The notes below the pieces were generated by a model. That model saw only the letters and a program-made list of their open reading frames with translations. It had not been told where the DNA came from and ran no database searches. Positions 15,310 to 32,601 of a DNA stretch of 64,000 bases are shown here, in pieces. The stretch lies in assembly GCA_035548175.1 (NCBI GenBank), contig DASZTO010000073.1, positions 581-64,580 on the forward strand, read 5' to 3'. The translations under genes were made by a program, and so were the position numbers. Position 1 is the stretch's first letter. Each line of letters opens with the position of its first letter. Origin of the DNA: Phycisphaerae bacterium (GTDB taxonomy: Bacteria; Planctomycetota; Phycisphaerae; WQYP01).

Positions 15310-15377
15310 CAGGGAGATGCCGAGACTTCCCCCCACCGAGCAACACATCGCAGCGCCACCGTGCGTGGTCGAGTACA

Positions 15378-16294: not shown

Positions 16295-16726
16295 TTAGGG
16301 TTGGGATTGTGCGGGTTGGGGGGCGATGGTGGCGGCGGAGGCCCATTGGACGACGTCGTTTTCGACGATCATGGCGACGTAGGAAATTTGCGGAGAGGAA
16401 AGGGGTTTGATGACGGTGATGCGGATGCCGGAGAACTGGGTGGCGAGGGCGCCGGCGGGGGTGGTTTTGGGGGTCTGGGTACCGATGGCCACCTCGGCTC
16501 TTTGGCCGTTTTCGATCTGGAGGAAGGGGCGTGAGAGGACATCGTATTTGCCGTCGGCCTGGAGGCGCATCAGGACGAATTTCACGAGATAGGTGTTGCC
16601 GGATTGTTTGGCGGTGGCGTTGATGGTGTAGAGGGCAGGGGCGGGTTGCGAGGCGGGGGGCACGGGAGCGGGGGCGGCGGCGAGGAGGAGGGGGAGGAGG
16701 GCGGCGACGGTGAGGGGGCGGCGCAT
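16295..16726 (-). CDS. Small secreted protein of unknown function
   Basis: Signal peptide MRRPLTVAALLPLLLAAAPAP from the ATG at 16726; 143 aa; no recognised domain. Confidence 0.5.
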   Translation of the reverse strand: MRRPLTVAALLPLLLAAAPAPVPPASQPAPALYTINATAKQSGNTYLVKFVLMRLQADGKYDVLSRPFLQIENGQRAEVAIGTQTPKTTPAGALATQFSGIRITVIKPLSSPQISYVAMIVENDVVQWASAATIAPQPAQSQP

Positions 16727-17080
16727 GGGCGGTCCTTTCAGAAAGCGGGTTAGATGCTGAGGGAGGTGTGGGTGAGACGGATGGATTGGAGTTCGTTGGA
16801 GGTGATGAAGGTGGCGGGGCCGGCGGGGGTGGAGACGGCGGATTGGAGGGCGCGGTCGAGGGTGGAGGCGGGGAGGAAGGTGGGGGAGGCGGCGAAGCCG
16901 ATGGTTTGGCCGGTGGGGAGGGAAGCGATGATGGTGGGCGGGGTGAGTTGGGGGTAGACGTTGGGGTCGGCGATGAAGAGGGAGCAGTGGAGGGTGTCGC
17001 CGGAGGGGAGGGGGATGTAGCGGATGGGGATTTCGCGGTAACCGTGGTGGTGGGAGGGGCAAATTTCGCGATGGGGGGGG

Positions 17081-17270
17081 ACGGTAAATGGCCACGAAAA
17101 ACCGGGCGCGGCGAAGCGCAAAAGATTAAACACGGAGCACACGGAGAGCACGGAGGAACGACGACGGTCTCCCCCCCAACGACGACGTAAATGGCCACGA
17201 AAGGCACGACAAGCACGAAAGACGGCGGACGGGACTTGTCCACGAATGCACACGAATTTACACGAATGGA
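17081..17270 (+). repeat. Interspersed intergenic repeat, copy R2 (the longest copy, with a CACGAATG tail)
   Basis: GATTAAACACGGAGCACACGGAGAGCACGGAGG...ACGACGACGTAAATGGCCACGAAAGGCACGACAAGCACGAAAG...TCCACGAATGCACACGAATTTACACGAATG. It contains two TAAATGGCCACGAAA cores, and the reverse complement of 63530-63620 matches its tail. Confidence 0.7.
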
Positions 17271-17478
17271 CGTGGTGGGATTGGATGGAGCGGGAAGGGG
17301 CCACCGATGGGCGCCGACGATTGAATTGCGGCGGCATGAAAGGGGTTGGGATTCTTAAGGGGACAGGCGGTGCGGGATGCGCGGGGTATGGAGATTTTAC
17401 AGATATTTGTAAATCTTTTTCTGGGGGGTGAGCGTGTCATGGGTGTGCAGGCGGTGGGCGCGGCGGTGCAGGTGTGGG

Positions 17479-18111
17479 ATGCTGGCGATGTTGGTGGATG
17501 CAGGAAACGGAGTTGGCTGCGTGGAGGCGAGGGTGCCGGAGTCGGATGATGAGGCGCGGGCGGATCGAGCGGCGTTGGAGCGGCTGCGGGCGGGGGATCT
17601 TGGGGGGTTCGACGGGTTTGTGGATCGGTACAAGCAGCGGTTGTTCCGGTATTTGCTGGCGCGGGTGGAGTCGGTGCAGACGGCAGAGGATTTGACGCAG
17701 GACGTTTTTTTGAAGGCGATCCGGAATCCGCCAGGGGATGCGGGGGCAGGGCGGGTGTCGACGTGGCTGTTCACGGTGGCGCAGCGGTGTCTGCAGGATC
17801 ATCAACGGTGGCGGCGGCGTCGGGCGCAGCATGCGGAGGCGGTGATGGCGGCGCGGCCTGCGGGAAGGAGCGTGGATCCGGCGGCGGCGGCGAGCGCGGA
17901 GGAGGAGCGGGTGCGGCTGGCAGCATTGCTGGGGAAGCTGCCGGAGGAACAGCGGGATGTCCTGACGCTGCGGCTGCTGGGGGATTTGTCGATAGCGGAG
18001 ATTGCGGCGGTGACGGGGGCGCCGGAAGCGACGGTGAAATCGCGATTGAAATATGGATTGGAAAAGCTGGCGCGGAGCGTGCCTGGAGCGCTGAAGGAGG
18101 ACCGGCGATGA
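17479..18111 (+). CDS. RNA polymerase ECF-type sigma-70 factor
   Basis: Region 2 (RAGDLGGFDGFVDRYKQRLFRYLLARV...AEDLTQDVFLKA) and region 4 (LPEEQRDVLTLRLLGDLSIAEIAAVTGAPEATVKSRL). The start is taken as the ATG at 17479 inside the longer GTG-initiated ORF. Confidence 0.8.
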   Translation: MLAMLVDAGNGVGCVEARVPESDDEARADRAALERLRAGDLGGFDGFVDRYKQRLFRYLLARVESVQTAEDLTQDVFLKAIRNPPGDAGAGRVSTWLFTVAQRCLQDHQRWRRRRAQHAEAVMAARPAGRSVDPAAAASAEEERVRLAALLGKLPEEQRDVLTLRLLGDLSIAEIAAVTGAPEATVKSRLKYGLEKLARSVPGALKEDRR

Positions 18112-20849
18112 GCAAACCGTTGCCTGCGGACGTAGTGGAATTGGCGGAGACGGCGGAGGAGCGGGAGCTGTTGGAGCGCGCTGCGGGGGCGGCGCGGACA
18201 GATGTGGAACTGGCGGGGGGATTCAACGATCGGCTGCATGAGCGGTTGACGGCACCGGTGGGACGGGCAGGGCGTGAGCGCCGGTGGCGGCAGGTGGCGG
18301 GTCTGGCGGCGATGCTGCTGGTGGGCGCGTGGCTGGGGGCGACGTTGTTTTCACGGGGAGGAAATCCGTTGGTGGGCGGGGTGGCGTGGGCGGATGTGGT
18401 GCGGGCGGTGAATCATGTGCAGCAGTTGCACGTGCTGGCGTATCAGGAGTCGCCGCAGTCGGGGGGAAACATGCCGCCGTTGTCGCGGTTGGATTTGTAC
18501 TACCAGGCGCGGGCGGGAGCGGCGGGAATGTGGCGGGCACAGGGGCTGGGGCACGTGCAGTTTTTGACACCGGGGGAGAAGCCGGAATCGCGGACGTGGT
18601 CGGTGGCGGAGAAGCAATGGACGACCCGGGACAACGTGCGGCTGATTCCGCAGGGGATGACGGGAAAGGTGGAATCGGGAGATTTGCTGGAGGTGGTGCT
18701 GACGTGGATTTTTCATGGGGCGGCACCGGAGGCGCAACCGGTGAAGAACGACGCGCTGACGGGGGCGGGGATCGATGTGTTTGACTATGCAACGGACGCG
18801 GCGTCGCCGTGGGCGCGGATATGGGTGACGCGGGATTCGCGGTTGCCGGTGCGGATCAAGATGTACGCGCCGGCGTCGGATGGCTTTTTGCTGCTGGAGT
18901 TTGATTACGGGGAGGCTGAGCCGGCGGATTTTTTCAATCCAGAGGCGTTTGAGGCGGGGATGGGGCGGTTGGATGCGGAGGCGGCAACGCGACCGGCGCG
19001 GGCGTACGAGATGGGGGCGGCGCCGGTGGACAACCTGCGGCCGCAGACGGCGCGACAGATTCACACGGTGCAGCCGGAGGCGGTGGCGCCGAAGGTAATT
19101 TCGGCGACGCGTCTGGCGTCGGGGGACATCGTGCTGGTGACGACTTCGCCACGGAACGTGAATGCGGGGGGCAGTGCGGATGAATTCGAGTTACACGATG
19201 TGGTGGACGACCAGGGAACGCGATATGCGGCGGAGTGGTTCAGCGAAGGGGTGCATGTGAATGAGGAATCGCCGCGGACGACGTGGCTGATTCCGGTGAG
19301 CGCGCCCGTCGGGGAAGTGAAGTCGGTGAAAGCGCGGGTGTTCACGCGGGCGGCGGAGGCGCAGGAGCTGGGGGAACTGGAAGCGGCGGTGACGGAAGGA
19401 AGCGTGCCGTCTGCGCGTGGTCCGACGGCGGAGGGGCGGTTTGCGGCGTTGCGTGCGTATTGGCAGAACGGGACGGTGGCAGAGCGGCGGGCGTTTGTGG
19501 AGCGGGCGCTGGCGGAGCATCCCCATGATGCGGGGGCGGTGCGGGCGAAGATGGAGTTGCTGTTTGAGCTGGGGAAACGGGAAGAGGGATGGGCGCTGTA
19601 TGAGCAGGAGATGCTGCCGGAGGCGCTGGAGACGCTGCTGGATGATGAGGCGAACGTAACGTTGTTTGCGGGGTATGTGCTCTGGCTGGAGAACCAGGGG
19701 CGCGGGACGGAGGCGAAAGTGCTGACGGAGAAGGGGCGGAAGGTTGTGGAGGAAGCGGCGTTTGGGAAGGATGCGCGGCGGAAGGCGGCGGCGATGCAGG
19801 CATTGCGGCCGGAGGAGTGGAATCTGTTTGGGAAGGTGCTGAAACTGCCGGAATTGGAGTCGTGGGTGGTGGGATCCAACAAGCCGGTGGTGAAGCAGAT
19901 GATTGTGGGAGAGGATGGGGTGGTGGTGGTGCAGGTGGCGTTGCCGGGGAATCTGCCGGCGTCGGTCATGGGGCCGGTGCGCGGTGGCTCGATGGCGGCG
20001 GATTATGCGTTGTGGGCCGGGATGACGGCGGCGGATGTGACGGCGGAGGGACGGGCGGTGTGGCGACAAACCGGGGCGGCGTACGATCCGGCGACACACA
20101 CGCTGGCGCTGGGGTTTCGCGGGAGCGGGAAAAAGTTGACGCTGACGAAGCAGATCACGCTGCTGCAGGATGCGTATCCTTCGGCGGCGGGGGATTTGCA
20201 ATATGCGTGGAAGCTGGCGGTGGCGACACCGGCGGCGTCGACGGAGAGCGCGGCGGCGTGGTGGGCGAAAAATGTGCCGGCAGATCCGAGCAAGTGGTGG
20301 GCGGACCAGCGGCCAGTACCCTCGCCGTTTGATGCGTCGCAGATAGTGGCGGAGGAGGCGTTGCGGGCGGGCCGGAACGCGGAGGCGGCGGGGTTGTATG
20401 GGGAGTTGATCAGAACGCTGGATCGGGCGGGTCCGCCGCCGGGGGTGACGGGGGATAATGCGGTGGCCTTGCGGGATAGTTTGGAGGAGGGGCGCGTGGA
20501 GGCACTGACAGGCGCCGGGGATTTAACGGGGGCGGAGAAGGCTTTGCGGGCGTGGGAGGAAGAGCTGCCGGGGGCGCCGGATTTTCACAAGCGGTTTGTG
20601 GTGGAGCGGTATGAGAAGGTCAATGGGGCGGGGGCAAAGCTGGCGGAGGCATTGATGGATGCGGGGGAGGCGGAGGCGGCGCGGAGGGTGCTGGATGGGC
20701 TGGAGAAAGCGCGGCCGGATTTGAAGGATGAGGTGGACGTGCTGGTGCGGGAGGCGGGGAATGGCGGGGTGTGGTGGTATGTGGGAGAGAATCGGGGGGC
20801 GTGGGTGGCGGTGGATCGGGCACGGTGGCGGATGATGAAGAGCGAGTGA
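18108..20849 (+). CDS. Anti-sigma factor; 913 aa, single-pass membrane protein with a large extracytoplasmic TPR-like domain
   Basis: The ATG at 18108 overlaps the sigma-factor stop as ATGA. The N-terminus is cytoplasmic, followed by a TM helix (VAGLAAMLLVGAWLGATLF) and a roughly 800-aa extracytoplasmic region with TPR-like helical repeats at the C-terminus. Confidence 0.6.
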   Translation: MSKPLPADVVELAETAEERELLERAAGAARTDVELAGGFNDRLHERLTAPVGRAGRERRWRQVAGLAAMLLVGAWLGATLFSRGGNPLVGGVAWADVVRAVNHVQQLHVLAYQESPQSGGNMPPLSRLDLYYQARAGAAGMWRAQGLGHVQFLTPGEKPESRTWSVAEKQWTTRDNVRLIPQGMTGKVESGDLLEVVLTWIFHGAAPEAQPVKNDALTGAGIDVFDYATDAASPWARIWVTRDSRLPVRIKMYAPASDGFLLLEFDYGEAEPADFFNPEAFEAGMGRLDAEAATRPARAYEMGAAPVDNLRPQTARQIHTVQPEAVAPKVISATRLASGDIVLVTTSPRNVNAGGSADEFELHDVVDDQGTRYAAEWFSEGVHVNEESPRTTWLIPVSAPVGEVKSVKARVFTRAAEAQELGELEAAVTEGSVPSARGPTAEGRFAALRAYWQNGTVAERRAFVERALAEHPHDAGAVRAKMELLFELGKREEGWALYEQEMLPEALETLLDDEANVTLFAGYVLWLENQGRGTEAKVLTEKGRKVVEEAAFGKDARRKAAAMQALRPEEWNLFGKVLKLPELESWVVGSNKPVVKQMIVGEDGVVVVQVALPGNLPASVMGPVRGGSMAADYALWAGMTAADVTAEGRAVWRQTGAAYDPATHTLALGFRGSGKKLTLTKQITLLQDAYPSAAGDLQYAWKLAVATPAASTESAAAWWAKNVPADPSKWWADQRPVPSPFDASQIVAEEALRAGRNAEAAGLYGELIRTLDRAGPPPGVTGDNAVALRDSLEEGRVEALTGAGDLTGAEKALRAWEEELPGAPDFHKRFVVERYEKVNGAGAKLAEALMDAGEAEAARRVLDGLEKARPDLKDEVDVLVREAGNGGVWWYVGENRGAWVAVDRARWRMMKSE

Positions 20850-21159: not shown

Positions 21160-22326
21160 CTACGGGTTCCCTTGGGGGAGGTCGTGGAAGGATTTGGTGG
21201 TGGGGAGGGGCAAGGGGAGGCGTTCGAGGATTTTGAGGAGGCGGGAGGCGGCGTGGCCGTCGCCGTAGAGGTTTTTGCGTTGGGCGATTTTTTTGCGGAA
21301 GGGTTTGTTGGTGAGTGCGAAGCGGATGGCGGATTGGATGGGGCGGAGGGAGGCGGGCGAGACGCCCGCGGTACGAGACCAGGGGACGTCGAGGATGTTG
21401 GGGTTGCGTTCGCGGCCTTTCTGGCGGTCGCCGAGGTTGATGACGGGGAGGGCGAAGGAGGCGGCTTCGATGATGCCGGCGGAGGAGTTGCCGATGAGGA
21501 GCGAGGCCTGGGTGAGGAGCTGCCAGAAATCGGGTTGGGAGAGGGACATGGTGAGGGGGATTTTGGCGGCGGTGTAGGCACGGAGGATGCCGGTGTGGCC
21601 GGGGTCGTTGTTGGGGCCGATGGCGGTGAAGGGGATGTTGGCGGCGCGGAGGGCGCGGAGGAGGAGGGAGGTGCGTTTTTGTTCGAGGGCGTCGTCTGGG
21701 GAGGAGGGGTGGAGAAGGAGTAGGGCGGAAGGGTTTGACAAGGTGACAGGGTGACAAGGTGACGAGGTGAGGAAGGCGGCGAGGGTGTCGAGGGCGGGGG
21801 CGCCGATGACGTGGATCGTTTTGGGATCTTCGCCCATTTGTTGGATGCGTTGGGCGGCGCGATTGGTGGCGGGGAAGTGGCGGTGGGCGAGTTTGGTGAT
21901 GGCGTGGCGGATTTGTTCGTCCCAGGTGCCGGGTGCGGTTTCGCCGCCGTGGAGGTGGGCGATGGGGATGTGGGAGACGAGTGCGGCGTTTGCGGCGGCG
22001 AGCATTTCGAGGCGGTCGCCGAGGAGGAGGAGGAGGTCGGGTTTGAGGACGGCGAGTTCTGCGCCGAGCCTGGTGACGGCGTGTCCGAGTGATGCGGCGG
22101 GAGGATCGTCGGGACGGTACATGTCGACGACGGCTTCGATGGGGATGCCGGAAGCTTCGACGTCGCGGATGGTGTAGCCGAACTGCGGTTGGAGGTGCAT
22201 GCCGGTGACGATCAATTGGGGGCGGAGATTTTTGGATTTTTGGAGGGCGTGGAGGATGGGGGTCCAGATGCCGAATTCGGCGCGGGTACCGGTGAGGATA
22301 GCGATATTGCGAAGGGAACTAGCCAC
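21160..22326 (-). CDS. neuC: UDP-N-acetylglucosamine 2-epimerase (hydrolysing), NeuC type
   Basis: IAILTGTRAEFG, LIVTGMH, LLLGDRLEMLAAANAA, IPIAHLHGGE and HPVTL all match NeuC/SiaA. GTG start at 22326. Confidence 0.85.
   Translation of the reverse strand: MASSLRNIAILTGTRAEFGIWTPILHALQKSKNLRPQLIVTGMHLQPQFGYTIRDVEASGIPIEAVVDMYRPDDPPAASLGHAVTRLGAELAVLKPDLLLLLGDRLEMLAAANAALVSHIPIAHLHGGETAPGTWDEQIRHAITKLAHRHFPATNRAAQRIQQMGEDPKTIHVIGAPALDTLAAFLTSSPCHPVTLSNPSALLLLHPSSPDDALEQKRTSLLLRALRAANIPFTAIGPNNDPGHTGILRAYTAAKIPLTMSLSQPDFWQLLTQASLLIGNSSAGIIEAASFALPVINLGDRQKGRERNPNILDVPWSRTAGVSPASLRPIQSAIRFALTNKPFRKKIAQRKNLYGDGHAASRLLKILERLPLPLPTTKSFHDLPQGNP
21734..21770. repeat. Imperfect GGTGACAA octamer tandem array inside neuC; a 30-nt segment is 29/30 identical to 26184-26213
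   Basis: TTTGACAA GGTGACAG GGTGACAA GGTGACGA GGTGA. It is in frame and encodes TSSPCHPVTLS. Confidence 0.6.
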
Positions 22327-22365
22327 GAATGCTCACAAATGGACACGAATGAATGTAAATGATTC
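22321..22365 (+). repeat. Repeat-family fragment R3 (CACGAATG / CACAAATG words) in the neuB-neuC spacer
   Basis: GCCACGAATGCTCACAAATGGACACGAATGAATGTAAATG matches the tail of R2. Confidence 0.45.
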
Positions 22366-22368
22366 CGA

Positions 22369-23415
22369 TCAGGCGATGTCGTTGGGGGTGAGGGTGGTGT
22401 TGGCGGGGAGGGGACGGGTGAGTGTTTTGCCGAGGGTTTGTTGGTAGAGGGCGGCGGGGATGCCGGTGCCGGGGCGTTTGACGGTGAGCATGTCTTTGGT
22501 GAGGAGGGCGCCCTTGGGGAGGGGTTTGGTAGTGGTGAGGGATTGGCGGGTTTGTTGGCGGATTTGGCGTTCGCGGGGTTGGGGGGATTTTTCGTAGGGG
22601 CCGCGCATGGCGTGGGCGGTGGCGGCGAGGCGGATGTAGTCGGCGAGTTGGGGGGGGTCGAGAGAGGCGGCGTGGTCTGGGCCTTTGCGGGTGCGGTCGA
22701 GGGTGAGGTGCTTTTCGAGGACAGACGCGCCGGCGGCGACGGCGAGGGCGGCGGTGAGGGTTTCCATGGTGTGGTCGGAATAGCCGATGGGAATTTGCGG
22801 GTAGCGGTTACGCATGACGGTGATGGCGGCGAGGGTGGCGTGGTTGGGGGGCGTGGGGTAGCTGCTGACGCAGTGGAGGAGGATGGTGCGGTCGAGGGCT
22901 AGCGCATCGGCGAGCCAGCCGCGGGTGCGGTCGATTTCTTCGAGGTCGGCGGCGCCGGTGGAGAGGATGAGGGGGAGGTTGGTGGCAAGGGCGGCTTCGA
23001 GGAGGGGGAGATTAACGAGGTCGGGGCTGGCGAGCTTGATGGCGTCGACGTGCATGTCGACGCAGGCGGGGACGAGCTCGGGGGAGAAGGGGGTAACGAT
23101 GGCGGCGAGGTTGAGGGCGTGGGCGCGGGCGACGAGGGGGGCCATTTTTTCGGGGGGGAGTTCGAGGGGCTTGAGGAGGTCGTCTGCGCCGGCGCCGGAT
23201 TCCACGCTGGATTTCTGGTAGTCGACGAGGGCGGCGCTTTGGGCGAGGAGGCGGTCGGCTTCGAAGAGCTGGAATTTGACGGCGTGGGCGCCGGCGCGGT
23301 GGGCGGCGTCAACGAGCTGGGCGGCGATGTCGGGTGAGCCGTCGTGGTTGACGCCGATCTCGGCGAGGATGAAGGGCGGGCCGTCGCGGGTGATGTCGGT
23401 TGTTCTGATTTGCAT
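22369..23415 (-). CDS. neuB: N-acetylneuraminate synthase with a C-terminal sialic acid synthase antifreeze-like (SAF) domain
   Basis: ILAEIGVNHDGS, AVKFQLF, ILSTGAADLEEI, GYSDHT and a C-terminal SAF domain (LLTKDMLTVKRPGTGI). Confidence 0.9.
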   Translation of the reverse strand: MQIRTTDITRDGPPFILAEIGVNHDGSPDIAAQLVDAAHRAGAHAVKFQLFEADRLLAQSAALVDYQKSSVESGAGADDLLKPLELPPEKMAPLVARAHALNLAAIVTPFSPELVPACVDMHVDAIKLASPDLVNLPLLEAALATNLPLILSTGAADLEEIDRTRGWLADALALDRTILLHCVSSYPTPPNHATLAAITVMRNRYPQIPIGYSDHTMETLTAALAVAAGASVLEKHLTLDRTRKGPDHAASLDPPQLADYIRLAATAHAMRGPYEKSPQPRERQIRQQTRQSLTTTKPLPKGALLTKDMLTVKRPGTGIPAALYQQTLGKTLTRPLPANTTLTPNDIA

Positions 23416-23444
23416 GGCTGCTTAACACAAAGGAGACGGAAAAA

Positions 23445-23530
23445 TTGTCCACAAAAGCACACGAACGGACACGAATTTATCTAATTTGGCGTCTATTTGT
23501 GTTCATTTATGAGCATTTGTGGACGCGTGG
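23445..23530 (+). repeat. Repeat-family fragment R4 spanning the neuA 3' end and the neuA-neuB spacer
   Basis: TTGTCCACAAAAGCACACGAACGGACACGAATTT...TTTGTGTTCATTTATGAGCATTTGTGG. The last 11 codons of neuA (TRPQMLINEHK) are encoded by repeat sequence. Confidence 0.45.
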
Positions 23531-24332
23531 GGTTTTGCTGGGCGCGAAGCATGGCTTCGGCGAGGTAGAGGTCTTTTTCGGTGTCGATGTCGACGGAGTC
23601 TTCGGGGGAGACGATAAGGCCGCGGCGATCGGCGCCGAGGAAGGCGTGGGGGTCTTCGGGGTGGTTTTCGGCTTGCATGAGGACGCCGGTTTTCATGACG
23701 TAGACGGCGCCGGTGGGGGAATAGAGCGGGGGGAGGTCCTGGCGGCGGAAGATGGTGTTGGGGATGTGCTTTTGGATTTGATTTGAGTTGGGGTTGAGGT
23801 CGAACATCCAGTAGGGGTGGAATTTGCCCACAGATGCGATGGTTTGGACGGAGTCGGCGCCGGTGTCGAGCAACATTTGGATGCAGCGGTCGATCATGTT
23901 GTCCGTGCGGATGGGGACGTTGCCGTAGAGCATGACGATGGCGCGCGGAAGATCAGAATTAACCACGGAGGACACGGAGGGCACGGAGATTGGATTTTTG
24001 ATTTTCTCTGCCTCCGTGTTCTCCGTGGTTTCAAAGGAATGCGGATAGAGCGAGCGGACGGCGTGGCGGAGGACGGGGTCGGTGGCGCTGGCGGCGGTCG
24101 CGAGCTCGGGGGGGCGGAGGAGGGTTTCAAAGCCTTCGGAGTGGGCGAGGGCGAGGATGTCGGGGGAATCGCTGCTGACGATGGTGCGGGTGATAAGGGT
24201 GGATTGGCGGGCGTGGTCGAGGGTGTAGGCGAGGACGGGTTTGCCCAGGAGGGGCCGGAGGGATTTGTTGGGCAGGCCGACGGAGCCGGCGCGGGCCATG
24301 ATGACGGCGAGGATGTGAGGCGCGGTGGCCAT
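23493..24332 (-). CDS. neuA: N-acylneuraminate cytidylyltransferase (CMP-Neu5Ac synthetase) carrying an in-frame palindromic-repeat insertion
   Basis: ILAVIMARAGSVGLPNKSL...GKPVLAYTL...IVSSDSPDI...AIVMLYGNVPIRT (the QPTSPLR-equivalent motif). ATG at 24332. A roughly 30-aa loop (FETTENTEAEKIKNPISVPSVSSVVNSDL) is encoded by repeat R5. Confidence 0.8.
   Translation of the reverse strand: MATAPHILAVIMARAGSVGLPNKSLRPLLGKPVLAYTLDHARQSTLITRTIVSSDSPDILALAHSEGFETLLRPPELATAASATDPVLRHAVRSLYPHSFETTENTEAEKIKNPISVPSVSSVVNSDLPRAIVMLYGNVPIRTDNMIDRCIQMLLDTGADSVQTIASVGKFHPYWMFDLNPNSNQIQKHIPNTIFRRQDLPPLYSPTGAVYVMKTGVLMQAENHPEDPHAFLGADRRGLIVSPEDSVDIDTEKDLYLAEAMLRAQQNPTRPQMLINEHK
23955..24030. repeat. Palindromic repeat-family copy R5 inserted in frame within neuA
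   Basis: Arms AACCACGGAGGACACGGAGGGCACGGAG and CTCTGCCTCCGTGTTCTCCGTGGTT flank an AT-rich 17-nt loop. The head is about 90% identical to R1 12705-12738. Confidence 0.65.
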
Positions 24333-24334
24333 GG

Positions 24335-24724
24335 TTAACGAGGTCCAGGAAATGCGACGAAGTTTTCGACAAATACCAGAAATAGAGCGAAGGCGAGAGC
24401 ACAGAGGAGATGAAAGAGGCTGATGAGGATAGCGGCGATGGGAAAGGCGAAGCCGTGCCATTGATCGGGGTGTTTGCGAATTTGGTAAATAGTGAGGACC
24501 GCGATGATCAGGCACGCCAGGGGAGCGACAATGAATCCCGTTATCGCAATGATCGTGAAGGCAGTGGAGGCGCCCTCGGGAAGCAGATACGTCGAGAGGT
24601 AAGCGAGTTCAGGAACGAAGGCGAAAATGAAACAGGGGATGGCGCGGGGATGTCGCCGGGAGCGCGTGGTTGCGTAGGGGAGGAGGGGGTCAGGGGCGAG
24701 GGGTTGTGAGGGTTGAGAAGTCAT
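24335..24724 (-). CDS. Small integral membrane protein of unknown function
   Basis: The ATG at 24724 overlaps the upstream stop as ATGA. 129 aa with three predicted TM helices. Confidence 0.5.
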   Translation of the reverse strand: MTSQPSQPLAPDPLLPYATTRSRRHPRAIPCFIFAFVPELAYLSTYLLPEGASTAFTIIAITGFIVAPLACLIIAVLTIYQIRKHPDQWHGFAFPIAAILISLFHLLCALAFALFLVFVENFVAFPGPR

Positions 24725-26400
24725 GCGCGGTGCCACTCCGTGCAGGTGGTGCAGGGGGTGGGGTAGGAGGCGTCGGCGTGCTGTTGGCGGAGGGTGGTGA
24801 GGGCGGGGCTGGTCCAGAGCTGGGCGAGGGAGTGGGAATCGATGTTGCCCAGGGGCAGGGTGTCGTGAGGGTCCTGGTCGCAGGGGACGGCGGTGCCGTT
24901 GGAGCGCAGGAGGAGGCGGTCCCAGAGGCGGCGGCAGGGGCGGCGTTTGGGGGGGGCCATGTCGATGACGGCGGTGGGCGGGAGTGTGCCGGCGCGGGTG
25001 GTGGGAGAATCGATGACGGCCCAACCGGCCTGGGAGATCCAGGTATCGAAGAAGGGTTCGAGTTCGGGGATGGTGTCGCGGACTTTGAGGAGGCGCGGGA
25101 TGACGAGGGGAAGGCCGTGGTTGGCGCGGGTGGCGGCGGCGAGTTGGAGGAGGTTGGCGGAGAATTTTTCGTGGAAGGAGGTGTTGGAGACTTTGTTGTA
25201 GGTTTGGGGCGTGTGGCCGTAGGTGGTGATGGTGAGGATGTCGAGGAAGTTTTCGGAGATGGCGGTGAGGAGGGGGTCGAGGTTGTCGGCGAGGAGGTCG
25301 GTTTGGAGGCAGATGCTGAGGGGTTTGGCGTTGCGGGCGGCGCGGAGGACGGCGAGGAGGTGGGGATAGAGGAGGGGGTCGCCGTCGCCGGCGAAGGTGA
25401 GGAGGAGGTCGTCGGGGAAGTGTTGTGAGGCGAGCCAGCGGGTCCAGTGGACGGGGTCGAGGTGGCCGCGGGCCTGGCGGATGATTTGCGGGACGGAGCC
25501 GGGGGGGTTGGTGAGGCGGTTGGGGGTGAGTTCGATTTCGAGTTCGCGCGGGGCGGTGTGGGTGCGGGAGAAGTCGGTGACGCCGGGGGCGACGGAGCGT
25601 GCGGCTTCGAGGGCGAGAGCGGCGGGGGAGATGGAAATGACTCCTGACCCCTTTTCTCGTGAAGGGGAAGTAGAAATGACTCCTGACCCCTTTTCTGGCC
25701 AGGCGCGGTCGGTGTCGAGGAGGAAGCGGTTGGGGATTTTGGAGAGGGCGGGGTCGACTTGCATGCAGGCGTCGCGGATGAGGGTGTCGAACTGGGGGTT
25801 GGCGGGGTCGTAGGCGAGGAGCTGCCAGGGCATGACTTTTTTGTCGCCCATTTCGAGGGCGATGTCGGCGCGGAGCATGAAGCCGGTGAGGCCGGGGGCG
25901 GCGGGGGTGTAGGTGATGCGCATTTCGTGGTTTTTGTGGAGGTGGTGATGGAGGAGGGCTTCGGTGAGGGGGACGTCGAGGAAGGCGGCGTGGGAGTGGA
26001 TGGCGAGGATGTGGTCGGCGTTGAAGGTGCGCGCGGCGTGGGCGATGGCGGCGGGATGGTACTCCTCGTCGAAGACGGTGAACTGGCCGGCGCCGCCGCG
26101 CCAGGAGAGGAGGTTCCAGGGACGGGCGGCGCGGATGCGGGCGGAGATGGCTTCGGGGCGGGCGATGAGCGGTGTGGTGGACACGGTGACAAGGTGACAA
26201 GGTGACGAGGTGAATTGTTGGGCGAGGGGGAGTTGGGGTTCGGGGGCGGCGAGGAGGATGTGGGTGAGGCCATGGACTTGCTGGAGGCGGTCGAGGACGT
26301 GAGTGAGGATGGGTTTTCCGGCGAGGGGGTCGCGGAGGCGGGAGCGCGTGCCGATGGCGGTTGTGTCGAAATCGCAGCAGATGACGGCGAGGATGTTCAT
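24721..26400 (-). CDS. Fusion of a NeuA/SpsF-like cytidylyltransferase domain with a degenerate radical-SAM-like core (no CxxxCxxC) and a SPASM-like Cys-rich C-terminus
   Basis: N-terminus MNILAVICCDFDTTAIGTRSRLRDPLAGKPILTHVLDRL is nucleotidyltransferase-like. The middle has ELEIELTPNRLTNPP where radical-SAM enzymes carry CxxxCxxC, plus a GGEPLL-like FAGDGDPLLYP. The C-terminus is PCRRLWDRLLLRSNGTAVPCDQDPHD...LGNID...PCTTCTEW. It contains a perfect 39-nt tandem duplication and the shared octamer segment. Confidence 0.5.
   Translation of the reverse strand: MNILAVICCDFDTTAIGTRSRLRDPLAGKPILTHVLDRLQQVHGLTHILLAAPEPQLPLAQQFTSSPCHLVTVSTTPLIARPEAISARIRAARPWNLLSWRGGAGQFTVFDEEYHPAAIAHAARTFNADHILAIHSHAAFLDVPLTEALLHHHLHKNHEMRITYTPAAPGLTGFMLRADIALEMGDKKVMPWQLLAYDPANPQFDTLIRDACMQVDPALSKIPNRFLLDTDRAWPEKGSGVISTSPSREKGSGVISISPAALALEAARSVAPGVTDFSRTHTAPRELEIELTPNRLTNPPGSVPQIIRQARGHLDPVHWTRWLASQHFPDDLLLTFAGDGDPLLYPHLLAVLRAARNAKPLSICLQTDLLADNLDPLLTAISENFLDILTITTYGHTPQTYNKVSNTSFHEKFSANLLQLAAATRANHGLPLVIPRLLKVRDTIPELEPFFDTWISQAGWAVIDSPTTRAGTLPPTAVIDMAPPKRRPCRRLWDRLLLRSNGTAVPCDQDPHDTLPLGNIDSHSLAQLWTSPALTTLRQQHADASYPTPCTTCTEWHRA
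25634..25711. repeat. Perfect 39-nt in-frame tandem duplication (24/24 identical core) of lower GC content
   Basis: GAAATGACTCCTGACCCCTTTTCT at 25634-25657 and again at 25673-25696. It encodes EKGSGVISTSPSR / EKGSGVISISPAA. Confidence 0.7.
26184..26213. repeat. GGTGACAA octamer array inside the cytidylyltransferase/rSAM-like gene; 29/30 identical to the neuC segment
   Basis: CGGTGACAAGGTGACAAGGTGACGAGGTGA. It is in frame and encodes TSSPCHLVTVS. Confidence 0.6.
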
Positions 26401-28520
26401 CGTGCGGCTCCGGCGACTTCGCGCGGCCAGGGCTTGTTTTGTTGGAGGGCGTCGCGCTGGCGGTGGAGGCGGGCGAGGGCTTCGTCGAGGACGGCGAGGA
26501 GGCGTTCGGCGCCGGTTTGCAGGTTCTGCACGTAATCGATGTCGCGCAGGAGCTGGCGTTTCTGGCGGTCGAGGGAATCGGCCTTGGCGGTTTTGACGGA
26601 GAGGTCGGCGTTGAAGCGGCGGAGCTCGCCGATGGTGTTGAGGAAGACGACCATGTCAAAGGTCTGGGGATCGGTGTTGACCTTGGCGCGCTGGCGATCA
26701 ATTTCGGCGAAGAGGCGGTGCATGGCGGCGGGGTCGGTCTGCTTTTCGATCATCTCGTGGAGCAGGGGGATGGTGCGCTCGCAGGTTTCCTTCATGTCAG
26801 CGGCTGAGAGGCGGCGGGATTCGAGGGCGGCGATGGTGGTTTCGAGGGCGCGGGGTTGGTCGGTCGTCCAGGCTTTCCAGGGAGCGTTTGCCGGTAATGG
26901 GTAACTGGTAATTGGTAATTGGCAGTATTGGTCGATGGCGTCGCGCAGGGTCATGCGGGTGACGTGCTGTTTTTTGGCGCCGCCTTCGGTGGCGTCGATG
27001 ACGGTGTGGCGGCTGGCGGCGAAGTCGCGTTCGAATTGCTGGAGGTAGACGAAGAATTGTTCTTCGGTGTACATGGGGTGGCCGTGGATGTCGGGGATTT
27101 TGCGGAGGATGGTTTTGGAGCGGGCGATGCGTTCCCACTCCTTGGTTTCGAGGGTGTTGAAGCGGGAGAGTTCGGGCGACCACGTTTCGTGGATGGCGGT
27201 GCCGGGCTTGTAGTAGAGGCCGTCGACGAAGCCGAGGTCCTGGCCGATGAGGATGATGGGGTTGCAGCCGAGGAATTCGGCGAGGTAGAAGGAGAGGTGG
27301 GCGACGGTGGCGCCGGCTTTGAGACCGGCGCGGGTGGGGAAGGCGTCGCGGAGGAGTTTGGCGGCGAAATCGTTGTGCAGCAGCGTGATCCCCCCCCCAC
27401 CGCCGGAGCCGGAAAAAGTGTCGAGGACGTTCCAGTTGGCTTTGGCTTCAGCGACGAGGTGGAGGCGGTGCAGCGGGCCGCCGGCGCTTTCTTCGAGGTT
27501 TTCGAAGAAGCGTGTGGAGACGGTGTTGTAGTCGAGGGAGGTGACGAAGTCGGGCTCGATGCCGGCGGCGAGGAGGGGTTTGAGCATCGTCTGGACGGCG
27601 ATGATGACGGCTTTCCGGCCACGGCCGTCTTGGTCGCCTTTGATTTCGTGGAGCAGGTGCATGTTTTTCTGGAGGCTGGGGCCGGCGGCGACGAGGATGG
27701 CGGGAACGTTGGGGTAGGCGTTTTGCAGGAGGTCGAGGGTGGGAGTCGTGGCGTAGCGGCCGATGTTGTTGGCGACGTTGCGGCAGGTGGCGACGTTGTT
27801 GAGCATGAGGGTGAGGAAGCCGGTGCGGGTGAAGGAGACGAACTCGGTGATGAGTTTCTGGAAGGCGGAGAAGAAGCCGGCGGCATCGGCCTGGATGCTG
27901 GCGGGGTGGGCGGCGAAGAGGGTTCCCGCGCCGGCGGTGAAGAGGACGGAGCGGGGTTCAAGGCGGTCGACGAGGTGGCCGCGATCGAGGGAGGTGAAGA
28001 TCAGGAGGCGTGCGGTGCGGAGGGGTTCGGCGAGATCGGCGACGGAGAGAGCGGCTTTGAGGAGGGGGAGGTTGGGTTCGGCGACGATGAGGAGTGCGTC
28101 GTGGGGCATGCGGTCGAGGAGGGCGCGGATGTGGTGGCCGAGGCCGAAGCCGGAGACGGCGACGACGTAGCGGTCTTCGCAGGCGACGGCGGCGGCCCAG
28201 TTTTCGGCTTCGTGAAGGGGGCGATAGCGGGAGTGGAGGTAGACCTGGCGGCCCCCCGGCCCCCCCCCACCGGTCGGGGCGGCGAGGGGCCCGGGTCCCG
28301 ATTGCGCTGGGGGAGTTGTCATGACGCGGACGGTCGGGTATCCATCCTTAGCGGTCTCGAGGACCGGCACATCTGCGGGATGCACCGCGTCGATCGCCAT
28401 GGCGAGGCGGGCATCGGTCTGAAAAAGCGCCGAAAGGTTGCGAACATAGGTGGCGTGTGCGTCCGTAAGGAAGGGCGCAGGCGTATCGGGCGCGGCGGCG
28501 AGGGCAGCGGCGTCGGTCAT
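26397..28520 (-). CDS. Motility-accessory-factor (Maf) / DUF115 (MptE-like) family protein; putative nonulosonic-acid glycosyltransferase
   Basis: DUF115 core NVPAILVAAGPSLQKNMHLLHEI...AVIIAVQTMLKPLLAAGIEPDF with a long helical C-terminus. The ATG at 28520 is preceded by AGGAGG; the stop overlaps the next gene as ATGA. Confidence 0.7.
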   Translation of the reverse strand: MTDAAALAAAPDTPAPFLTDAHATYVRNLSALFQTDARLAMAIDAVHPADVPVLETAKDGYPTVRVMTTPPAQSGPGPLAAPTGGGGPGGRQVYLHSRYRPLHEAENWAAAVACEDRYVVAVSGFGLGHHIRALLDRMPHDALLIVAEPNLPLLKAALSVADLAEPLRTARLLIFTSLDRGHLVDRLEPRSVLFTAGAGTLFAAHPASIQADAAGFFSAFQKLITEFVSFTRTGFLTLMLNNVATCRNVANNIGRYATTPTLDLLQNAYPNVPAILVAAGPSLQKNMHLLHEIKGDQDGRGRKAVIIAVQTMLKPLLAAGIEPDFVTSLDYNTVSTRFFENLEESAGGPLHRLHLVAEAKANWNVLDTFSGSGGGGGITLLHNDFAAKLLRDAFPTRAGLKAGATVAHLSFYLAEFLGCNPIILIGQDLGFVDGLYYKPGTAIHETWSPELSRFNTLETKEWERIARSKTILRKIPDIHGHPMYTEEQFFVYLQQFERDFAASRHTVIDATEGGAKKQHVTRMTLRDAIDQYCQLPITSYPLPANAPWKAWTTDQPRALETTIAALESRRLSAADMKETCERTIPLLHEMIEKQTDPAAMHRLFAEIDRQRAKVNTDPQTFDMVVFLNTIGELRRFNADLSVKTAKADSLDRQKRQLLRDIDYVQNLQTGAERLLAVLDEALARLHRQRDALQQNKPWPREVAGAAR

Positions 28521-28583: not shown

Positions 28584-29285
28584 ATGATGGAGATTATCGG
28601 TCAGGTGGCGGGTGCCGCATTCACCCTTTTCAGCCAGGGAGGGGGGCTGGGGGGGATGGTGCTGGGGTTAATCCGGGCGCCGGCGCTGCCGGAGTCAATG
28701 GAAGCGTTCCTGTTTGAGAATCATTGGCTGTATTGGGCGATCGGCCTGGCGCTGGGTCTGACGCTGGCGTATCGGGGCCGGACGCTGACGAACCAGGGGA
28801 TGCTGCGGGTGGGGGTGGCGATCGCGGCGGTGGCGGTGTTGTGGGGGGGAGCGGCGCTGCTGGTGGATACGCCGGCGGAGCGGTTGTACGCGGCGCACAA
28901 GGGGATGGCGGCGGCAGCGGCGGCGGGGGATGTCGACAAGCTGGTGGGGTATCTGGCGAACAACTTCACCTGCCCGCAACTGGACATTGAGGACGCGCGC
29001 GATTCCCGGGAGGCGCTGGAGGCGGCGCTCAAGGCGAATGGCATAAAGGGAAGCACGATCACGAGTTATCACAGTACGATCAACCACGGCGTGGCGCAGG
29101 TGTCGCTGACGCTTTTGACGGAGACGCAGGGGGGAGCGGTCAAGACAAACTGGCGGCTGACGTGGGCGGATGTTCCGGGAGAGGATTGGCGGATACAGGA
29201 GGCGGAGTTGGAGGCGGTGGACGATCAGCCGGTGAACAGCGATTTTCGCATTCCTAAACAGGGGGGCGAGCTGCCGGGGTTTTGA
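28584..29285 (+). CDS. Membrane protein of unknown function
   Basis: Three to four TM helices at the N-terminus (AIGLALGLTLAY, GVAIAAVAVLWGGAALLV) and a soluble C-terminal half; SD AAGGGG. Confidence 0.45.
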   Translation: MMEIIGQVAGAAFTLFSQGGGLGGMVLGLIRAPALPESMEAFLFENHWLYWAIGLALGLTLAYRGRTLTNQGMLRVGVAIAAVAVLWGGAALLVDTPAERLYAAHKGMAAAAAAGDVDKLVGYLANNFTCPQLDIEDARDSREALEAALKANGIKGSTITSYHSTINHGVAQVSLTLLTETQGGAVKTNWRLTWADVPGEDWRIQEAELEAVDDQPVNSDFRIPKQGGELPGF

Positions 29286-29372
29286 GCGGGCGGAGAGCGG
29301 GGAGTGCGGGGGGTTAAGGGATTGGAGTGAAGGACCGATAGAGTGGGTAACGAACTCCAGAGGAGACCCACC

Positions 29373-30260
29373 ATGTCGCAGGCCGACGTGCCAGTCGCAC
29401 CCGCCAAGGACCCGCAGGCGATCATCAACGACGCGATCAACGCGGTGTCGCACATTGCGACGCTGCCGGAGATCACGGTGAAGATCATCCAGTTGGTGGA
29501 GAATCCGAAATCCACCGCGCAGGATCTGCACAAGCTGATCTCGAACGATCCGGCGCTGGTGGCGCGGATTCTGAAGGTGGTCAACTCGGCGTTTTACGGG
29601 TTGCCGGGGCAGATCGGGTCGATCAACCGTGCGATCGTGCTACTGGGTTTGAACGCGGTGAAGAACATCGTGATCGCGGCGTCGCTGGCGAAGCTGTTCA
29701 GGGGCGGACGGGTGTCGGCGCAGTTCTCGGCGAAGGAATTGTGGTCGCACTCGGTGGGCGTGGGCGTGATGGCGAAACTGATCACCGGCAAGCTCAATGG
29801 GCAGCTTCCGGATGAAGCGTTCCTGGCGGGACTGATTCACGACATCGGCATCCTCGTGGAATTGCAGTCGATGCGGGAGTCGCTGGTGGAAGTGGCGGAG
29901 AAGGCGACGCGCGAAGAACGGCGGTATATCGACATCGAGACGCAGGTGATCGGAGTGGATCACCAGGCGCTGGGCGCGGGGCTGACGGCGAAGTGGAAAT
30001 TCCCGCGCAGCTTCCAGTATGTGACGGGGCATCATCACCACCCGATGGCGCTGGCGATGGAGTGCCGGTGGCTGGCGTGCGTGGTGCACGTGGCGGACCA
30101 CGTGTGCACGCGCGAGAACATCGGGTATTCGCTGACGTGCAAGGGGGAGGCGCTGGATCCGGCGGTGCTGGAGGAGTTGAAGCTGCCGATGGAAACGGTG
30201 AACGAGCTGGCGAAGCAGTTGCCCGAGGCGCTGAAGGAAACCGAGGCGCTGTTGTCGTGA
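29373..30260 (+). CDS. HDOD-domain (HD-related output domain) signalling protein
   Basis: LPEITVKIIQLVENPKSTAQDLHKLISNDPALVARILKVVNSAFYG...LWSHSVGVGV...LAGLIHDIG. The ATG at 29373 has AGGAG 7 nt upstream. Confidence 0.7.
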   Translation: MSQADVPVAPAKDPQAIINDAINAVSHIATLPEITVKIIQLVENPKSTAQDLHKLISNDPALVARILKVVNSAFYGLPGQIGSINRAIVLLGLNAVKNIVIAASLAKLFRGGRVSAQFSAKELWSHSVGVGVMAKLITGKLNGQLPDEAFLAGLIHDIGILVELQSMRESLVEVAEKATREERRYIDIETQVIGVDHQALGAGLTAKWKFPRSFQYVTGHHHHPMALAMECRWLACVVHVADHVCTRENIGYSLTCKGEALDPAVLEELKLPMETVNELAKQLPEALKETEALLS

Positions 30261-30639: not shown

Positions 30640-32601
30640 CTACCCCTCTTTGGCGGCAGCGCCAAGATAGGCGGCGATGACGGCGGGATTTCGGCGGATC
30701 TGGTCGGGGGTTCCGGTGGCGATGGTTTTGCCGTAATCGAGGACGACGATGCGTTCGCAGACGCCCATGATGACTTTCATGTCGTGTTCGATGAGGAGGA
30801 TGGCGAGTCCGAAGCGTTGGCGGAGGGAGCGGATCATGTCCATGAGGGAGCGTTTTTCGGTGGGGTTCATGCCTGCGGCGGGCTCGTCGAGGAGGAGGAT
30901 GCGGGGTCGCGTGGCGAGGGCGCGGGCGATTTCGAGGCGTCGCTGGTCGCCGTAGGAGAGGGAGCTGGCGCAGGCGTCGGCGAGGTGTTCGAGGTGGAAG
31001 AGGGCGAGGTATTCGAGGGCGTTTTTGCGGGACTTGTCTTCTTCGCGGAAGAAGGCGGGGGTGCGGAGGATGGCGGCGGGGATGCCTTGCTTGTGGTGCA
31101 TGTGCTGGGCGATCTGGACGTTGTCGAGGACGGAGAGATTGGCGAAGAGGCGGATGTTCTGGAAGGTGCGGGCGACGCCGCGCTTGGAGATGGAGTGGGG
31201 GCGGAGGTGGCGGGCGGAGTGGTCGGCGATGGCGACACGTCCGGCGGTGGGTCGGTAGACGCCGGTGAGGACGTTGAAGACGGTGGTTTTGCCCGCGCCG
31301 TTGGGGCCGATGAGACCGACGAGTTCGCCGGGTGCGAGTGCGAGGGAGAAGTCGTCGACGGCTTTGAGGCCGCCGAATTGCATGGTGACATCGCGCGCGG
31401 AAAGAAGCGGAGTGCTGGGTGTTGCGTGTTGAGGACTGAGGGGAGAGGGCTGAGTCCTGAGTTCTGAATCCTGAGTTGTGGGGGGTCGGCGGCTATTGAG
31501 GAAGGGGGCGAAGAGGTCGGTGATTTCGTAGCGGCCGAAGATGCCGTGGCGCATGAAGAGCATGGCGAGGATGATGAGGAGGGCGTAGGCGACGGGCCGC
31601 CATCGTTCGGTGATGTCGGTGGGGACGAGGGTGTTGCGTTCGAGGATGGGGGGTATGACGGTGAGGAAGATGGCGGCGAGCGCGGAGCCGGTGATGGAGC
31701 CTTGTCCGCCGAGGATGACGTAGAGGACGATCATGGTGGAATACATGAAGCGGTAGCTGTTTGGGTTGAGGTCGCCGTACTGGCTGTAGAGTGCTCCGGC
31801 GAGTCCGGCGAGAGCGGCGCCGATGACGAAGGCGGCGATTTTGTAGCGGGTGGTGGGGATGCCGACGGCTTCGGAGGCGATGGGGTCTTCGCGGATGGCC
31901 AGGAGCGCCCGGCCGGTGGTGGAGTACTTGATGTTGCGGACGATGAGGATGGTGACCAGGACGGCCAGGAGCATCCAGAAGGAGGAGATGAAGTAGAGGG
32001 TGTTGTTGTTGTAGGCGATGACGTCGGGGCCGAAGGGGGTGTTTTTGCCGCCCTCGGCCCACCAGAGTTGTCGCATGTTGTCGATGCGGAGACCGAAGGT
32101 GCGGCCGAGGTATTCGCTGTTGCCGATGACGGTGGCGACGATTTCGCCGAAGCCGAGGGTGGCGATGGCGAGGTAATCGCCGCGGAGGCGGAGGGTGGGG
32201 AGTCCGACGAGCAGGCCGAGGAAAGCGCAGAGGAGCATGGCGGCGAGCATTCCGGCGACGGCCATGCAGGTGAAGGAGGCGGTGACGGAGAGGCCGAGGT
32301 GGGCGTGCCAGAAGGTGAGTTGTGGGAGGAAGAAGCCGGGTTTTCCGGTGATGACGGCGGCGGTGTAAGCGCCGACGGCCATGAATCCGGCGTGGCCGAG
32401 GGAGAATTGTCCGGTGAGGCCGAGGATGAGGTTGAGGCTGACGGCGAGGATGACGGCGATGCAGCAGTCGTAGAAAGTGTTGTGGGTGAGGGAGGACATG
32501 AGGAGGCGGGGATTGTCGAGGGCTGGGGAGACGGCGGCGATGAGGCCGATGAGGACGGCGATTGTCGCCAGGTGAAACCAGGAGCGCGTCGCGGGGGTCA
32601 T
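30640..32601 (-). CDS. In-frame fusion of branched-chain amino-acid ABC permease (LivM-like) and ATPase (LivG-like)
   Basis: The N-terminal 360 aa is a polytopic permease. The C-terminal 255 aa has GLIGPNGAGKTT, LSYGDQRRLEIARAL and LLLDEP. They are joined by the PTTQDSELRTQPSPLSPQHATPSTP linker, encoded by CTGAGTCCTGAGTTCTGAATCCTGAGTTGTG repeats at 31450-31480. No livF-like second ATPase follows. Confidence 0.8.
   Translation of the reverse strand: MTPATRSWFHLATIAVLIGLIAAVSPALDNPRLLMSSLTHNTFYDCCIAVILAVSLNLILGLTGQFSLGHAGFMAVGAYTAAVITGKPGFFLPQLTFWHAHLGLSVTASFTCMAVAGMLAAMLLCAFLGLLVGLPTLRLRGDYLAIATLGFGEIVATVIGNSEYLGRTFGLRIDNMRQLWWAEGGKNTPFGPDVIAYNNNTLYFISSFWMLLAVLVTILIVRNIKYSTTGRALLAIREDPIASEAVGIPTTRYKIAAFVIGAALAGLAGALYSQYGDLNPNSYRFMYSTMIVLYVILGGQGSITGSALAAIFLTVIPPILERNTLVPTDITERWRPVAYALLIILAMLFMRHGIFGRYEITDLFAPFLNSRRPPTTQDSELRTQPSPLSPQHATPSTPLLSARDVTMQFGGLKAVDDFSLALAPGELVGLIGPNGAGKTTVFNVLTGVYRPTAGRVAIADHSARHLRPHSISKRGVARTFQNIRLFANLSVLDNVQIAQHMHHKQGIPAAILRTPAFFREEDKSRKNALEYLALFHLEHLADACASSLSYGDQRRLEIARALATRPRILLLDEPAAGMNPTEKRSLMDMIRSLRQRFGLAILLIEHDMKVIMGVCERIVVLDYGKTIATGTPDQIRRNPAVIAAYLGAAAKEG

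Follow-up and report, generated by a model that had tools for sequence, protein, structure and literature searches.

A Maf-family gene and a large cytidylyltransferase/radical-SAM-fold partner form a conserved pair within a nonulosonate gene cassette of Phycisphaerae

A stretch of 64,000 nucleotides (nt) from a Phycisphaerae bacterium (assembly GCA_035548175.1, contig DASZTO010000073.1), referred to here as the window, carries on its minus strand at 21160-28520 a cassette encoding a Maf-family putative glycosyltransferase, a large partner protein, a small membrane protein and the enzymes NeuA, NeuB and NeuC. The tightest unit of this locus is Maf plus its partner, and the partner family is tied to Maf by gene order, overlap and fusion. 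On balance, the cassette is probably a native, lineage-conserved system of Phycisphaerae that decorates a protein with a sialic-acid-like nine-carbon sugar, with Maf and its partner acting together. Nonulosonate synthesis in environmental bacteria, Maf-type protein sialylation and the linkage between them are established, and the sugar genes are of ordinary kinds. What is new is the conserved module of Maf and partner, an undescribed variant.

The locus consists of six head-to-tail open reading frames (ORFs), listed here in order of transcription:

26397..28520, minus strand: Maf-family (DUF115/MptE-like) putative nonulosonate protein O-glycosyltransferase, 707 amino acids (aa)
24721..26400, minus strand: Maf partner, with a cytidylyltransferase fold, a cluster-less radical S-adenosylmethionine (radical-SAM) barrel and a twitch-like domain, 559 aa
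24335..24724, minus strand: small membrane ORF, 129 aa, about three hydrophobic helices
23493..24332, minus strand: neuA, NeuA-type CMP-nonulosonate synthetase (CTP_transf_3, 1e-17), one surface loop of which is extended by an insert of about 33 aa
22369..23415, minus strand: neuB, NeuB-type nonulosonate synthase with an SAF domain (Pfam NeuB, 1.8e-65)
21160..22326, minus strand: neuC, NeuC-type hydrolysing nucleotide-sugar 2-epimerase with a GTG start (TIGR03568, 335.9 bits)

A previous sequence-only reading of this DNA had described six minus-strand genes in this order, with the first three chained by ATGA overlaps and the second encoding a cytidylyltransferase plus pseudo-radical-SAM/SPASM fusion. 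All of the ORFs were found, profile searches of each protein upheld the families named, both halves of the partner were recovered by fold search, and both stop/start overlaps are present in the sequence, at 26400-26397 (Maf to partner) and 24724-24721 (partner to small membrane ORF), which supports translational coupling of the first three genes. The ATG of neuA (24332) begins 2 nt past the TAA of the small membrane ORF, and the neuA-neuB and neuB-neuC spacers measure 77 nt and 42 nt, respectively. An ATG at 28568 could give a longer Maf product; public annotation has the 707-aa form. The small membrane ORF had no family match in profile searches and was detected in the closest relatives only (87% identical in locus L002 and 29% in L003), being absent from L005, L006 and L011-L016. 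No Rfam family or tRNA was detected in scans of the window.

The pair of Maf and partner genes also occurs without neu genes, namely in the closed 3.79-Mb Phycisphaerales genome CP070691.1 (L019) and in L020, while in L021 it lies beside a separate, convergent NeuA-NeuB-NeuC-HDOD unit. A 4-nt overlap of the two genes was found in five lineages (the window, L002, L006, L019 and L021). A profile search of 1.84 billion cluster representatives detected 988 members of the partner family at E ≤ 1e-30, and among these were two natural, colinear, single-chain fusions of Maf and partner, P0306 (1224 aa) and P0328 (1209 aa), the latter present as at least six full-length copies on different contigs. The top 150 members from this search were all of the planctomycete type; the contig scan for relatives utilized family-specific peptide patterns and reached Phycisphaerae only. 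In L020, the pair is followed by a gene for a T2SSE-family ATPase of the PilB/GspE type (12085-15616), a single hint that could link the pair to pili or secretion rather than to flagella.

The predicted model of the partner (mean predicted local distance difference test score [pLDDT], 80.8; predicted template modelling score, 0.84) has two halves. Residues 1 to about 200 form the cytidylyltransferase-fold domain, which has an invariant P-loop-like GTRSR and a number of invariant acidic residues. Profile-profile comparison with NeuA gave no significant match, and hence the cytidylyltransferase assignment rests on fold. A low-confidence linker (residues 202-279; pLDDT <50) follows and contains the most conserved motif of the family, CMQVDPALSKIPNRF, a possible binding interface. 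The second half has a partial TIM-barrel fold of the radical-SAM type with a GGE-type motif (GGDGDPLL in the window; GG(F/D)G(E/D)PL across the family). The CxxxCxxC triad was found in none of 21 aligned homologues and at the radical-SAM position in none of 216 relatives; the string occurs in 2 of the 216, both times in the SPASM region. As this SAM-cleaving cluster motif is missing, radical chemistry is not expected of the partner. The C-terminal region matches Pfam SPASM (2.4e-11) and contains the only four invariant cysteines, C489, C507, C550 and C553, the chain ending 6 residues past the CX2C; the seven-cysteine SPASM motif for two auxiliary clusters is absent from the partner. A twitch-type CX12GX4C-(42-44)-CX2C was present in 168 of the 216 relatives, with close variants in most others. 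This is the pattern of a one-cluster twitch domain, as in BtrN, and the four cysteines probably form a single Fe-S site. The partner differs from twitch-domain radical-SAM enzymes such as BtrN in the loss of the SAM-cleaving cluster.

Similarity to the spiro-SPASM model TIGR04321 was detected at 6e-26 (91.1 bits, model positions 276-506), and six relatives of the partner scored 73 to 158 bits, matching positions 80-506 of 510; neither the window protein nor any of these relatives reached the cutoff of 250 bits. The partner family shares with spiro-SPASM proteins its length class and a C-terminal SPASM-type domain, and many Phycisphaerae homologues carry that name at JGI. Its lineage is planctomycete and its scores are uniformly sub-cutoff; it is a branch related to spiro-SPASM rather than a member. 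Literature searches for spiro-SPASM or TIGR04321, or for SPASM together with Maf and flagellin, returned no relevant paper.

Maf matched PF01973 (MptE-like/DUF115) with 115.7 bits (2.4e-33; cutoff, 34.6) and gave a full-length fold match to the solved Magnetospirillum Maf, 5MU5, at a sequence identity of about 15%. Its C-terminus carries a conserved WPREVAG tail. A score of 65.9 bits against the PseD model NF050051 of NCBIfam (cutoff, 670) reflects homology only and not identity with PseD. An MptE pterin kinase was considered for this gene and rejected, the full-length fold and gene context indicating Maf. The Maf flagellin glycosyltransferases (Campylobacter PseD/PseE, Aeromonas Maf1, Magnetospirillum Maf 5MU5, and the Maf proteins of Clostridium botulinum and Geobacillus) likewise have a central DUF115/MptE-like domain and are encoded beside CMP-nonulosonate biosynthesis genes, which the gene described here adjoins in one operon in the window and in 12 related loci. 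In contrast to them, it lies outside any flagellar or flagellin locus and is always paired with a large cytidylyltransferase/radical-SAM-fold partner, unreported for those systems. In L005, Maf is called as two ORFs (7741-9792; 428 and 243 aa) whose junction aligns poorly to other Maf proteins; a frameshift, an assembly error and a genuine split are all possible explanations.

The three sugar enzymes were assigned by profile and structure matches, and their catalytic-type motifs (NeuB and NeuC) align with those of solved enzymes. NeuC matched Epimerase_2 (6.7e-67) and exceeded the equivalog cutoff of the NeuC_NnaA model TIGR03568 (235.9 bits). NeuB has a clear SAF domain and scored 211.9 bits with the PseI model. 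The best solved match of NeuA was the N. meningitidis CMP-Neu5Ac synthetase 1EYR (2e-19); Pfam CTP_transf_3 covers residues 8-82, and the alignment with 1EYR comprises residues 7-97 and 131-263, interrupted by the insert. Against the PseF equivalog, NeuA scored 100.6, below the cutoff of 205.7. A hydrolysing NeuC-type epimerase is present, the NeuB model outscored that of PseI, and NeuA is nearest to CMP-Neu5Ac synthetases; these matches point to a sugar of the neuraminic/legionaminic (Neu/Leg) class rather than pseudaminic acid. N. meningitidis and E. coli K1, with NeuC/NeuB/NeuA, and systems with LegG/LegI/LegF have the same three enzyme families in one operon, SAF retained in NeuB and a hydrolysing NeuC. 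The cassette in the window differs in its A-B-C order, in the hairpin-encoding loop insert of its NeuA and in having no polysialyltransferase, capsule export or LegB/LegC/LegH genes.

The order Maf-partner-NeuA-NeuB-NeuC was conserved in 12 independent Phycisphaerae loci, with the partner 37 to 88% identical (tblastn of window proteins against the loci of relatives). Housekeeping genes make up the flanks, which vary by lineage (rpsP-trmD-rplS in L005 and purQ-hisD in L003, for example). Beyond neuC in the window come genes for an extracytoplasmic function (ECF) sigma/anti-sigma pair and a secreted protein, and then purQ and hisD. Upstream of Maf are the genes for a conserved membrane protein, for an HDOD protein and for a liv ABC transporter, an arrangement shared with L002 and L003. 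The neuC side carries hisD and purQ in L003 as it does in the window, and the Maf side carries the liv genes. Core metabolism makes up the remainder of the window (pyrG, clpC, trmE, mqnA, gpmA, accBC, pnp, purF, uppP and queA). The GC skew at third codon positions (GC3 skew, plus-strand orientation) was +0.67 to +0.85 for the five large genes of the locus and +0.60 for the small ORF, as compared with +0.81 to +0.87 for hisD/purQ and +0.79 for livMG, and the GC content of the locus approximates the window average. The locus DNA is 90% identical to that of L002; all indels of at least 6 nt are no longer than 40 nt, and most are at repeat sites. The conserved order, housekeeping flanks, flank-like GC3 skew and small indels demonstrate that the cassette is native and conserved, as opposed to an accessory island of recent remodelling.

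About 20 to 22 short tandem arrays with 7- to 10-nt units are present in the window, 5 to 7 of them inside the locus. What distinguishes the locus is that five arrays lie in frame inside ORFs (four of the six), in the NeuC inter-domain loop, the NeuA surface loop, two partner sites and one Maf loop. Every one of these sites is a variable loop or low-confidence linker where other lineages have different inserts. The principal elements, identified by motif matches and/or Tandem Repeats Finder (TRF), are as follows:

23955..24030, minus strand: palindromic repeat element inside neuA, in frame, with CACGGAGRA units on both arms (motif matches and TRF)
21736..21770, minus strand: octamer array GGTGACAA, 4.4 copies, in frame in the NeuC inter-domain loop (SSPCHPVTLS) (TRF, family D18)
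25635..25693, minus strand: two copies of AAAGGGGTCAGGAGTCATTT, 39 nt apart, in frame in the disordered linker of the partner (EKGSGVIS twice; linker pLDDT <50)
26893..26922, minus strand: heptamer array GGTAATT, 4.3 copies, in frame in a variable loop of Maf (QLPITSYPLP) (TRF)
22324..22351, minus strand: decamer array CACGAATGCA in the neuB-neuC spacer, overlapping the GTG start of neuC (motif matches and TRF)

The neuA palindrome is predicted to form an RNA hairpin of −38.9 kcal/mol (z, −6.4; none of 200 shuffles was as stable). The corresponding NeuA insert is common to L002 and L003 (NeuA 73 to 84% identical), different in L005 and absent in L006. A twin of the NeuC octamer array occurs at 26180-26213 in the partner gene, and L002 has a different 40-nt insert at the NeuC site. 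Other repeat-derived inserts occupy the partner linker in relatives. The Maf heptamer array is common to L002 and L018, other relatives having unrelated inserts there. An array related to the decamer lies in the neuA-neuB spacer (about 23440-23490). Intergenic clusters of 7- to 10-nt arrays at 12200-12810, 16260-17270, 58378-58461 and 63420-63613 are built from CACGAAAGR, CACGGAGRA, CACGAATGCA, GGTAATT, CCATTGC, CAATCGG and CACAAATCCA, the same unit types as in the neu and Maf genes, and some arrays form inverted pairs across the window (e.g., 12769-12802 with 63588-63621). In-frame arrays were also observed elsewhere in the window: a short array in clpC (11549-11585) falls in the inter-domain linker of ClpC, and one at 31450-31477, in a livM-livG fusion gene (30640-32601), encodes QDSELRTQPSPLSPQ between the permease and ATPase halves. 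Fused LivM-LivG was also present in L002 and L003.

A mechanism can be proposed for the cassette. NeuC would hydrolyse and 2-epimerise a UDP- or GDP-linked precursor of the N-acetylhexosamine type, NeuB would condense the product with phosphoenolpyruvate, and NeuA would activate the resulting nonulosonate, of the Neu/Leg stereochemical class, with CTP. Maf would then use the CMP-sugar as donor and attach the nonulosonate to Ser/Thr of an acceptor protein. The partner may be a non-radical subunit of Maf that binds the CMP-sugar or the acceptor and so sets the specificity or activity of Maf; a donor-binding, acceptor-bridging or regulatory role would fit a protein that combines a nucleotide-binding fold with a SAM-pocket-like motif and a single probable Fe-S site. 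Such a role would be analogous to that of GlfM or of the TPR domain in other Maf systems, without a shared fold. GlfM is a four-helix-bundle factor, generally encoded downstream of Maf-2 and needed for flagellin binding, and its split and fused forms have been discussed (bioRxiv 10.1101/2023.12.03.569772). The tripartite GlfM-Maf-2 flagellin sialylation system resembles the pair described here in having a Maf without a TPR domain, a cis-encoded cofactor gene directly downstream, and split and fused forms known or proposed. Unlike GlfM, the partner has 559 aa in three domains, with motifs for nucleotide binding and of the Fe-S type, and its role is a presumed one; the resemblance appears to be one of gene layout and presumed role, not of fold. 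A bolder and rather doubtful proposal is that Maf and the spiro-SPASM-like protein constitute an undescribed obligate two-subunit protein nonulosonyl-transferase, in which the cytidylyltransferase fold and a dead radical-SAM/twitch scaffold give donor/acceptor specificity, perhaps with a non-flagellar surface protein as target and HDOD-linked control.

Several results weigh against a protein-decorating cassette with a cooperating partner. In principle, the fusions could be due to loss of the stop codon at the ATGA overlap by assembly error; the six or more independent copies of P0328 argue otherwise. The window Maf scored 18 bits against Maf_flag10_N, below the cutoff of 23.5, a domain on record for several close Maf homologues. 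A Pfam scan confirmed the observation of the sequence-only reading that flagellar genes are not nearby, detecting none among the 39 flanking ORFs of the window, and none, including flagellin, was found in the 10-kb flanks of any relative. Results for the sugar enzymes that also count against this interpretation are given with the alternative that they favor. As to the acceptor, cultured Phycisphaerae such as Phycisphaera mikurensis are flagellated. Maf enzymes are described in published abstracts as flagellin glycosyltransferases and are described as able to O-link Neu5Ac (bioRxiv 10.1101/2020.06.03.131540), and a family co-conserved with flagellar genes has been reported from Phycisphaerae (PMC11607428). 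For these reasons, a flagellin encoded elsewhere is the likeliest acceptor by default. A non-flagellar target is also possible, as about 15 loci lack flagellar linkage.

The sugar could instead be legionaminic acid or a derivative, with NeuC, NeuB and NeuA acting as equivalents of LegG, LegI and LegF on a diacetamido-trideoxyhexose whose synthesis genes would lie elsewhere. Among solved structures, NeuC and NeuB are both matched best by enzymes of legionaminic-acid synthesis: LegG (5ZLR, 6.7e-57) lies ahead of the human GNE epimerase domain (7.8e-42) for NeuC, and B. subtilis SpsE (2.6e-48) ahead of N. meningitidis NeuB (7.5e-38) and PseI (3.5e-28) for NeuB, SpsE being described as belonging to a legionaminic-acid pathway (PMC7439481). 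Furthermore, NeuB scored 308.6 bits against TIGR03569, under the equivalog cutoff of 399.65, and the sugar-side motif of NeuA is divergent (YGNVPIR versus QPTSPLR in 1EYR). As LegG is the top solved match, the TIGR03568 score by itself is probably insufficient to tell NeuC and LegG apart; equally, the LegG match is not discriminating, a bacterial Neu5Ac-specific NeuC being missing among the solved matches. Against legionaminic acid, no LegB-, LegC- or LegH-type dehydratase, aminotransferase or acetyltransferase gene was found in the window or in the flanks of about 14 relatives. The earlier proposal of a full route from UDP-GlcNAc to CMP-Neu5Ac is broadly right for the three enzyme families; the product may not be Neu5Ac, given the matches to LegG and SpsE. 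Neu5Ac is the most economical guess, with about an even chance of being correct; a legionaminic-type sugar is a distinctly less probable candidate, and other sugars account for the remainder. A separate alternative concerns the 559-aa protein, which might be an independent enzyme (a second nucleotidyltransferase or a sugar-modifying enzyme) rather than a Maf subunit. The invariant GTRSR and acidic residues would fit such an enzyme, its top fold matches include DesII, BlsE and BtrN, radical-SAM enzymes acting on sugar substrates, and no NeuA gene lies beside the pair in L019 and L020. The missing radical-SAM cluster motif in 216 relatives, the strict pairing with Maf, the 4-nt overlaps and natural fusions, and the non-significant similarity to NeuA profiles make this unlikely.

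The sequence-only reading had regarded the locus as a recently remodelled, accessory Neu5Ac island holding most of the local repeat insertions, with Maf serving a non-flagellar acceptor. Consistent with that are the lack of flagellar genes within 64 kb, the micro-repeat arrays in the locus, some of which differ from those of the 90%-identical relative, and the possible pilus link in L020. The accessory part is contradicted by comparative genomics, which found the cluster conserved in the lineage: the gene order recurs in 12 loci, hisD/purQ and the liv genes keep their sides, skew and GC match the flanks, and the differences from L002 are small indels, mostly at repeat sites. The share of repeats was overstated, being a quarter to a third of the arrays, and the inserts occupy variable loops and are partly common to relatives. 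As a whole, that interpretation is now improbable. Still less credible is a decaying operon whose genes were inactivated by repeat insertions. Five in-frame arrays within four of six ORFs, and Pfam coverage of only the N-terminal part of NeuA, might suggest decay. However, all of the ORFs are intact, the inserts are confined to variable loops and linkers, alignment of NeuA to 1EYR resumes past the insert to take in the second half, and the insert is kept in relatives with NeuA 73 to 84% identical. Pseudogenisation by repeats was, therefore, rejected, and the in-frame repeats are tolerated loop insertions, not decay. The native, lineage-conserved cassette remains the preferred explanation.

Two genes upstream of Maf accompany the cassette:

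28584..29285, plus strand: divergent conserved membrane protein, 233 aa, with a weak DUF4440-like C-terminus (0.006)
29343..30260, plus strand: HDOD-domain protein (HDOD, 2.9e-58)

The membrane protein gene is a co-conserved neighbour, being upstream of Maf in L002, L003, L005, L011, L013-L015 and L018. The HDOD gene adjoins the cassette in nearly every lineage: it is upstream in L002, L003, L013 and L018, immediately follows NeuC in L006 and L014-L016, and is last in the NeuA-NeuB-NeuC-HDOD unit of L021. On the other side, between neuC and purQ (17428-20849, plus strand), lie the genes of an ECF sigma factor and of a putative anti-sigma protein of 914 aa that contains TPRs. L003 lacks this pair at that site and L002 has a Sigma70_r2/r4 gene further downstream of NeuC, behind other genes, indicating that the region downstream of neuC is variable among relatives. 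Between hisD and purQ (14697-15309, plus strand), two overlapping small ORFs resemble HicB/HicA toxin-antitoxin genes by eye, the second with a GKGSHTLFH-type motif; Pfam gave no match for the ORF at 14697-15056. A small ORF upstream of hisD (about 12987-13190, plus strand) resembles, again by eye, a truncated HigA-type antitoxin.

The window as a whole (1-64000) exhibits an extreme strand asymmetry independent of gene orientation, strongest at 12000-38000 and 55000-64000, with a GC skew of up to +0.54 per kb. The third-position skew is close to 0 at 2-9 kb and about +0.8 at 14-33 kb, passes through 0 near 44 kb and reaches −0.8 at 63 kb. Asymmetry of the same magnitude and either sign was observed in L002, L012 and L015; orthologous cassette genes, C-rich in the window, are rich in G in L012, where the GC3 skew attains +0.98, and their amino acid composition is shifted. 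A smooth 20-kb gradient is not the step seen at a replication origin or terminus, and a literature search found no paper on such strand asymmetry.

The partner family is large and has no published function. If the partner is a required subunit, it would represent a second kind of Maf cofactor beside GlfM, provide a function for spiro-SPASM-like proteins and exemplify reuse of the radical-SAM fold without radical chemistry. The repeats within the cassette indicate that, in this lineage, short repeat elements can persist in frame within enzyme loops.

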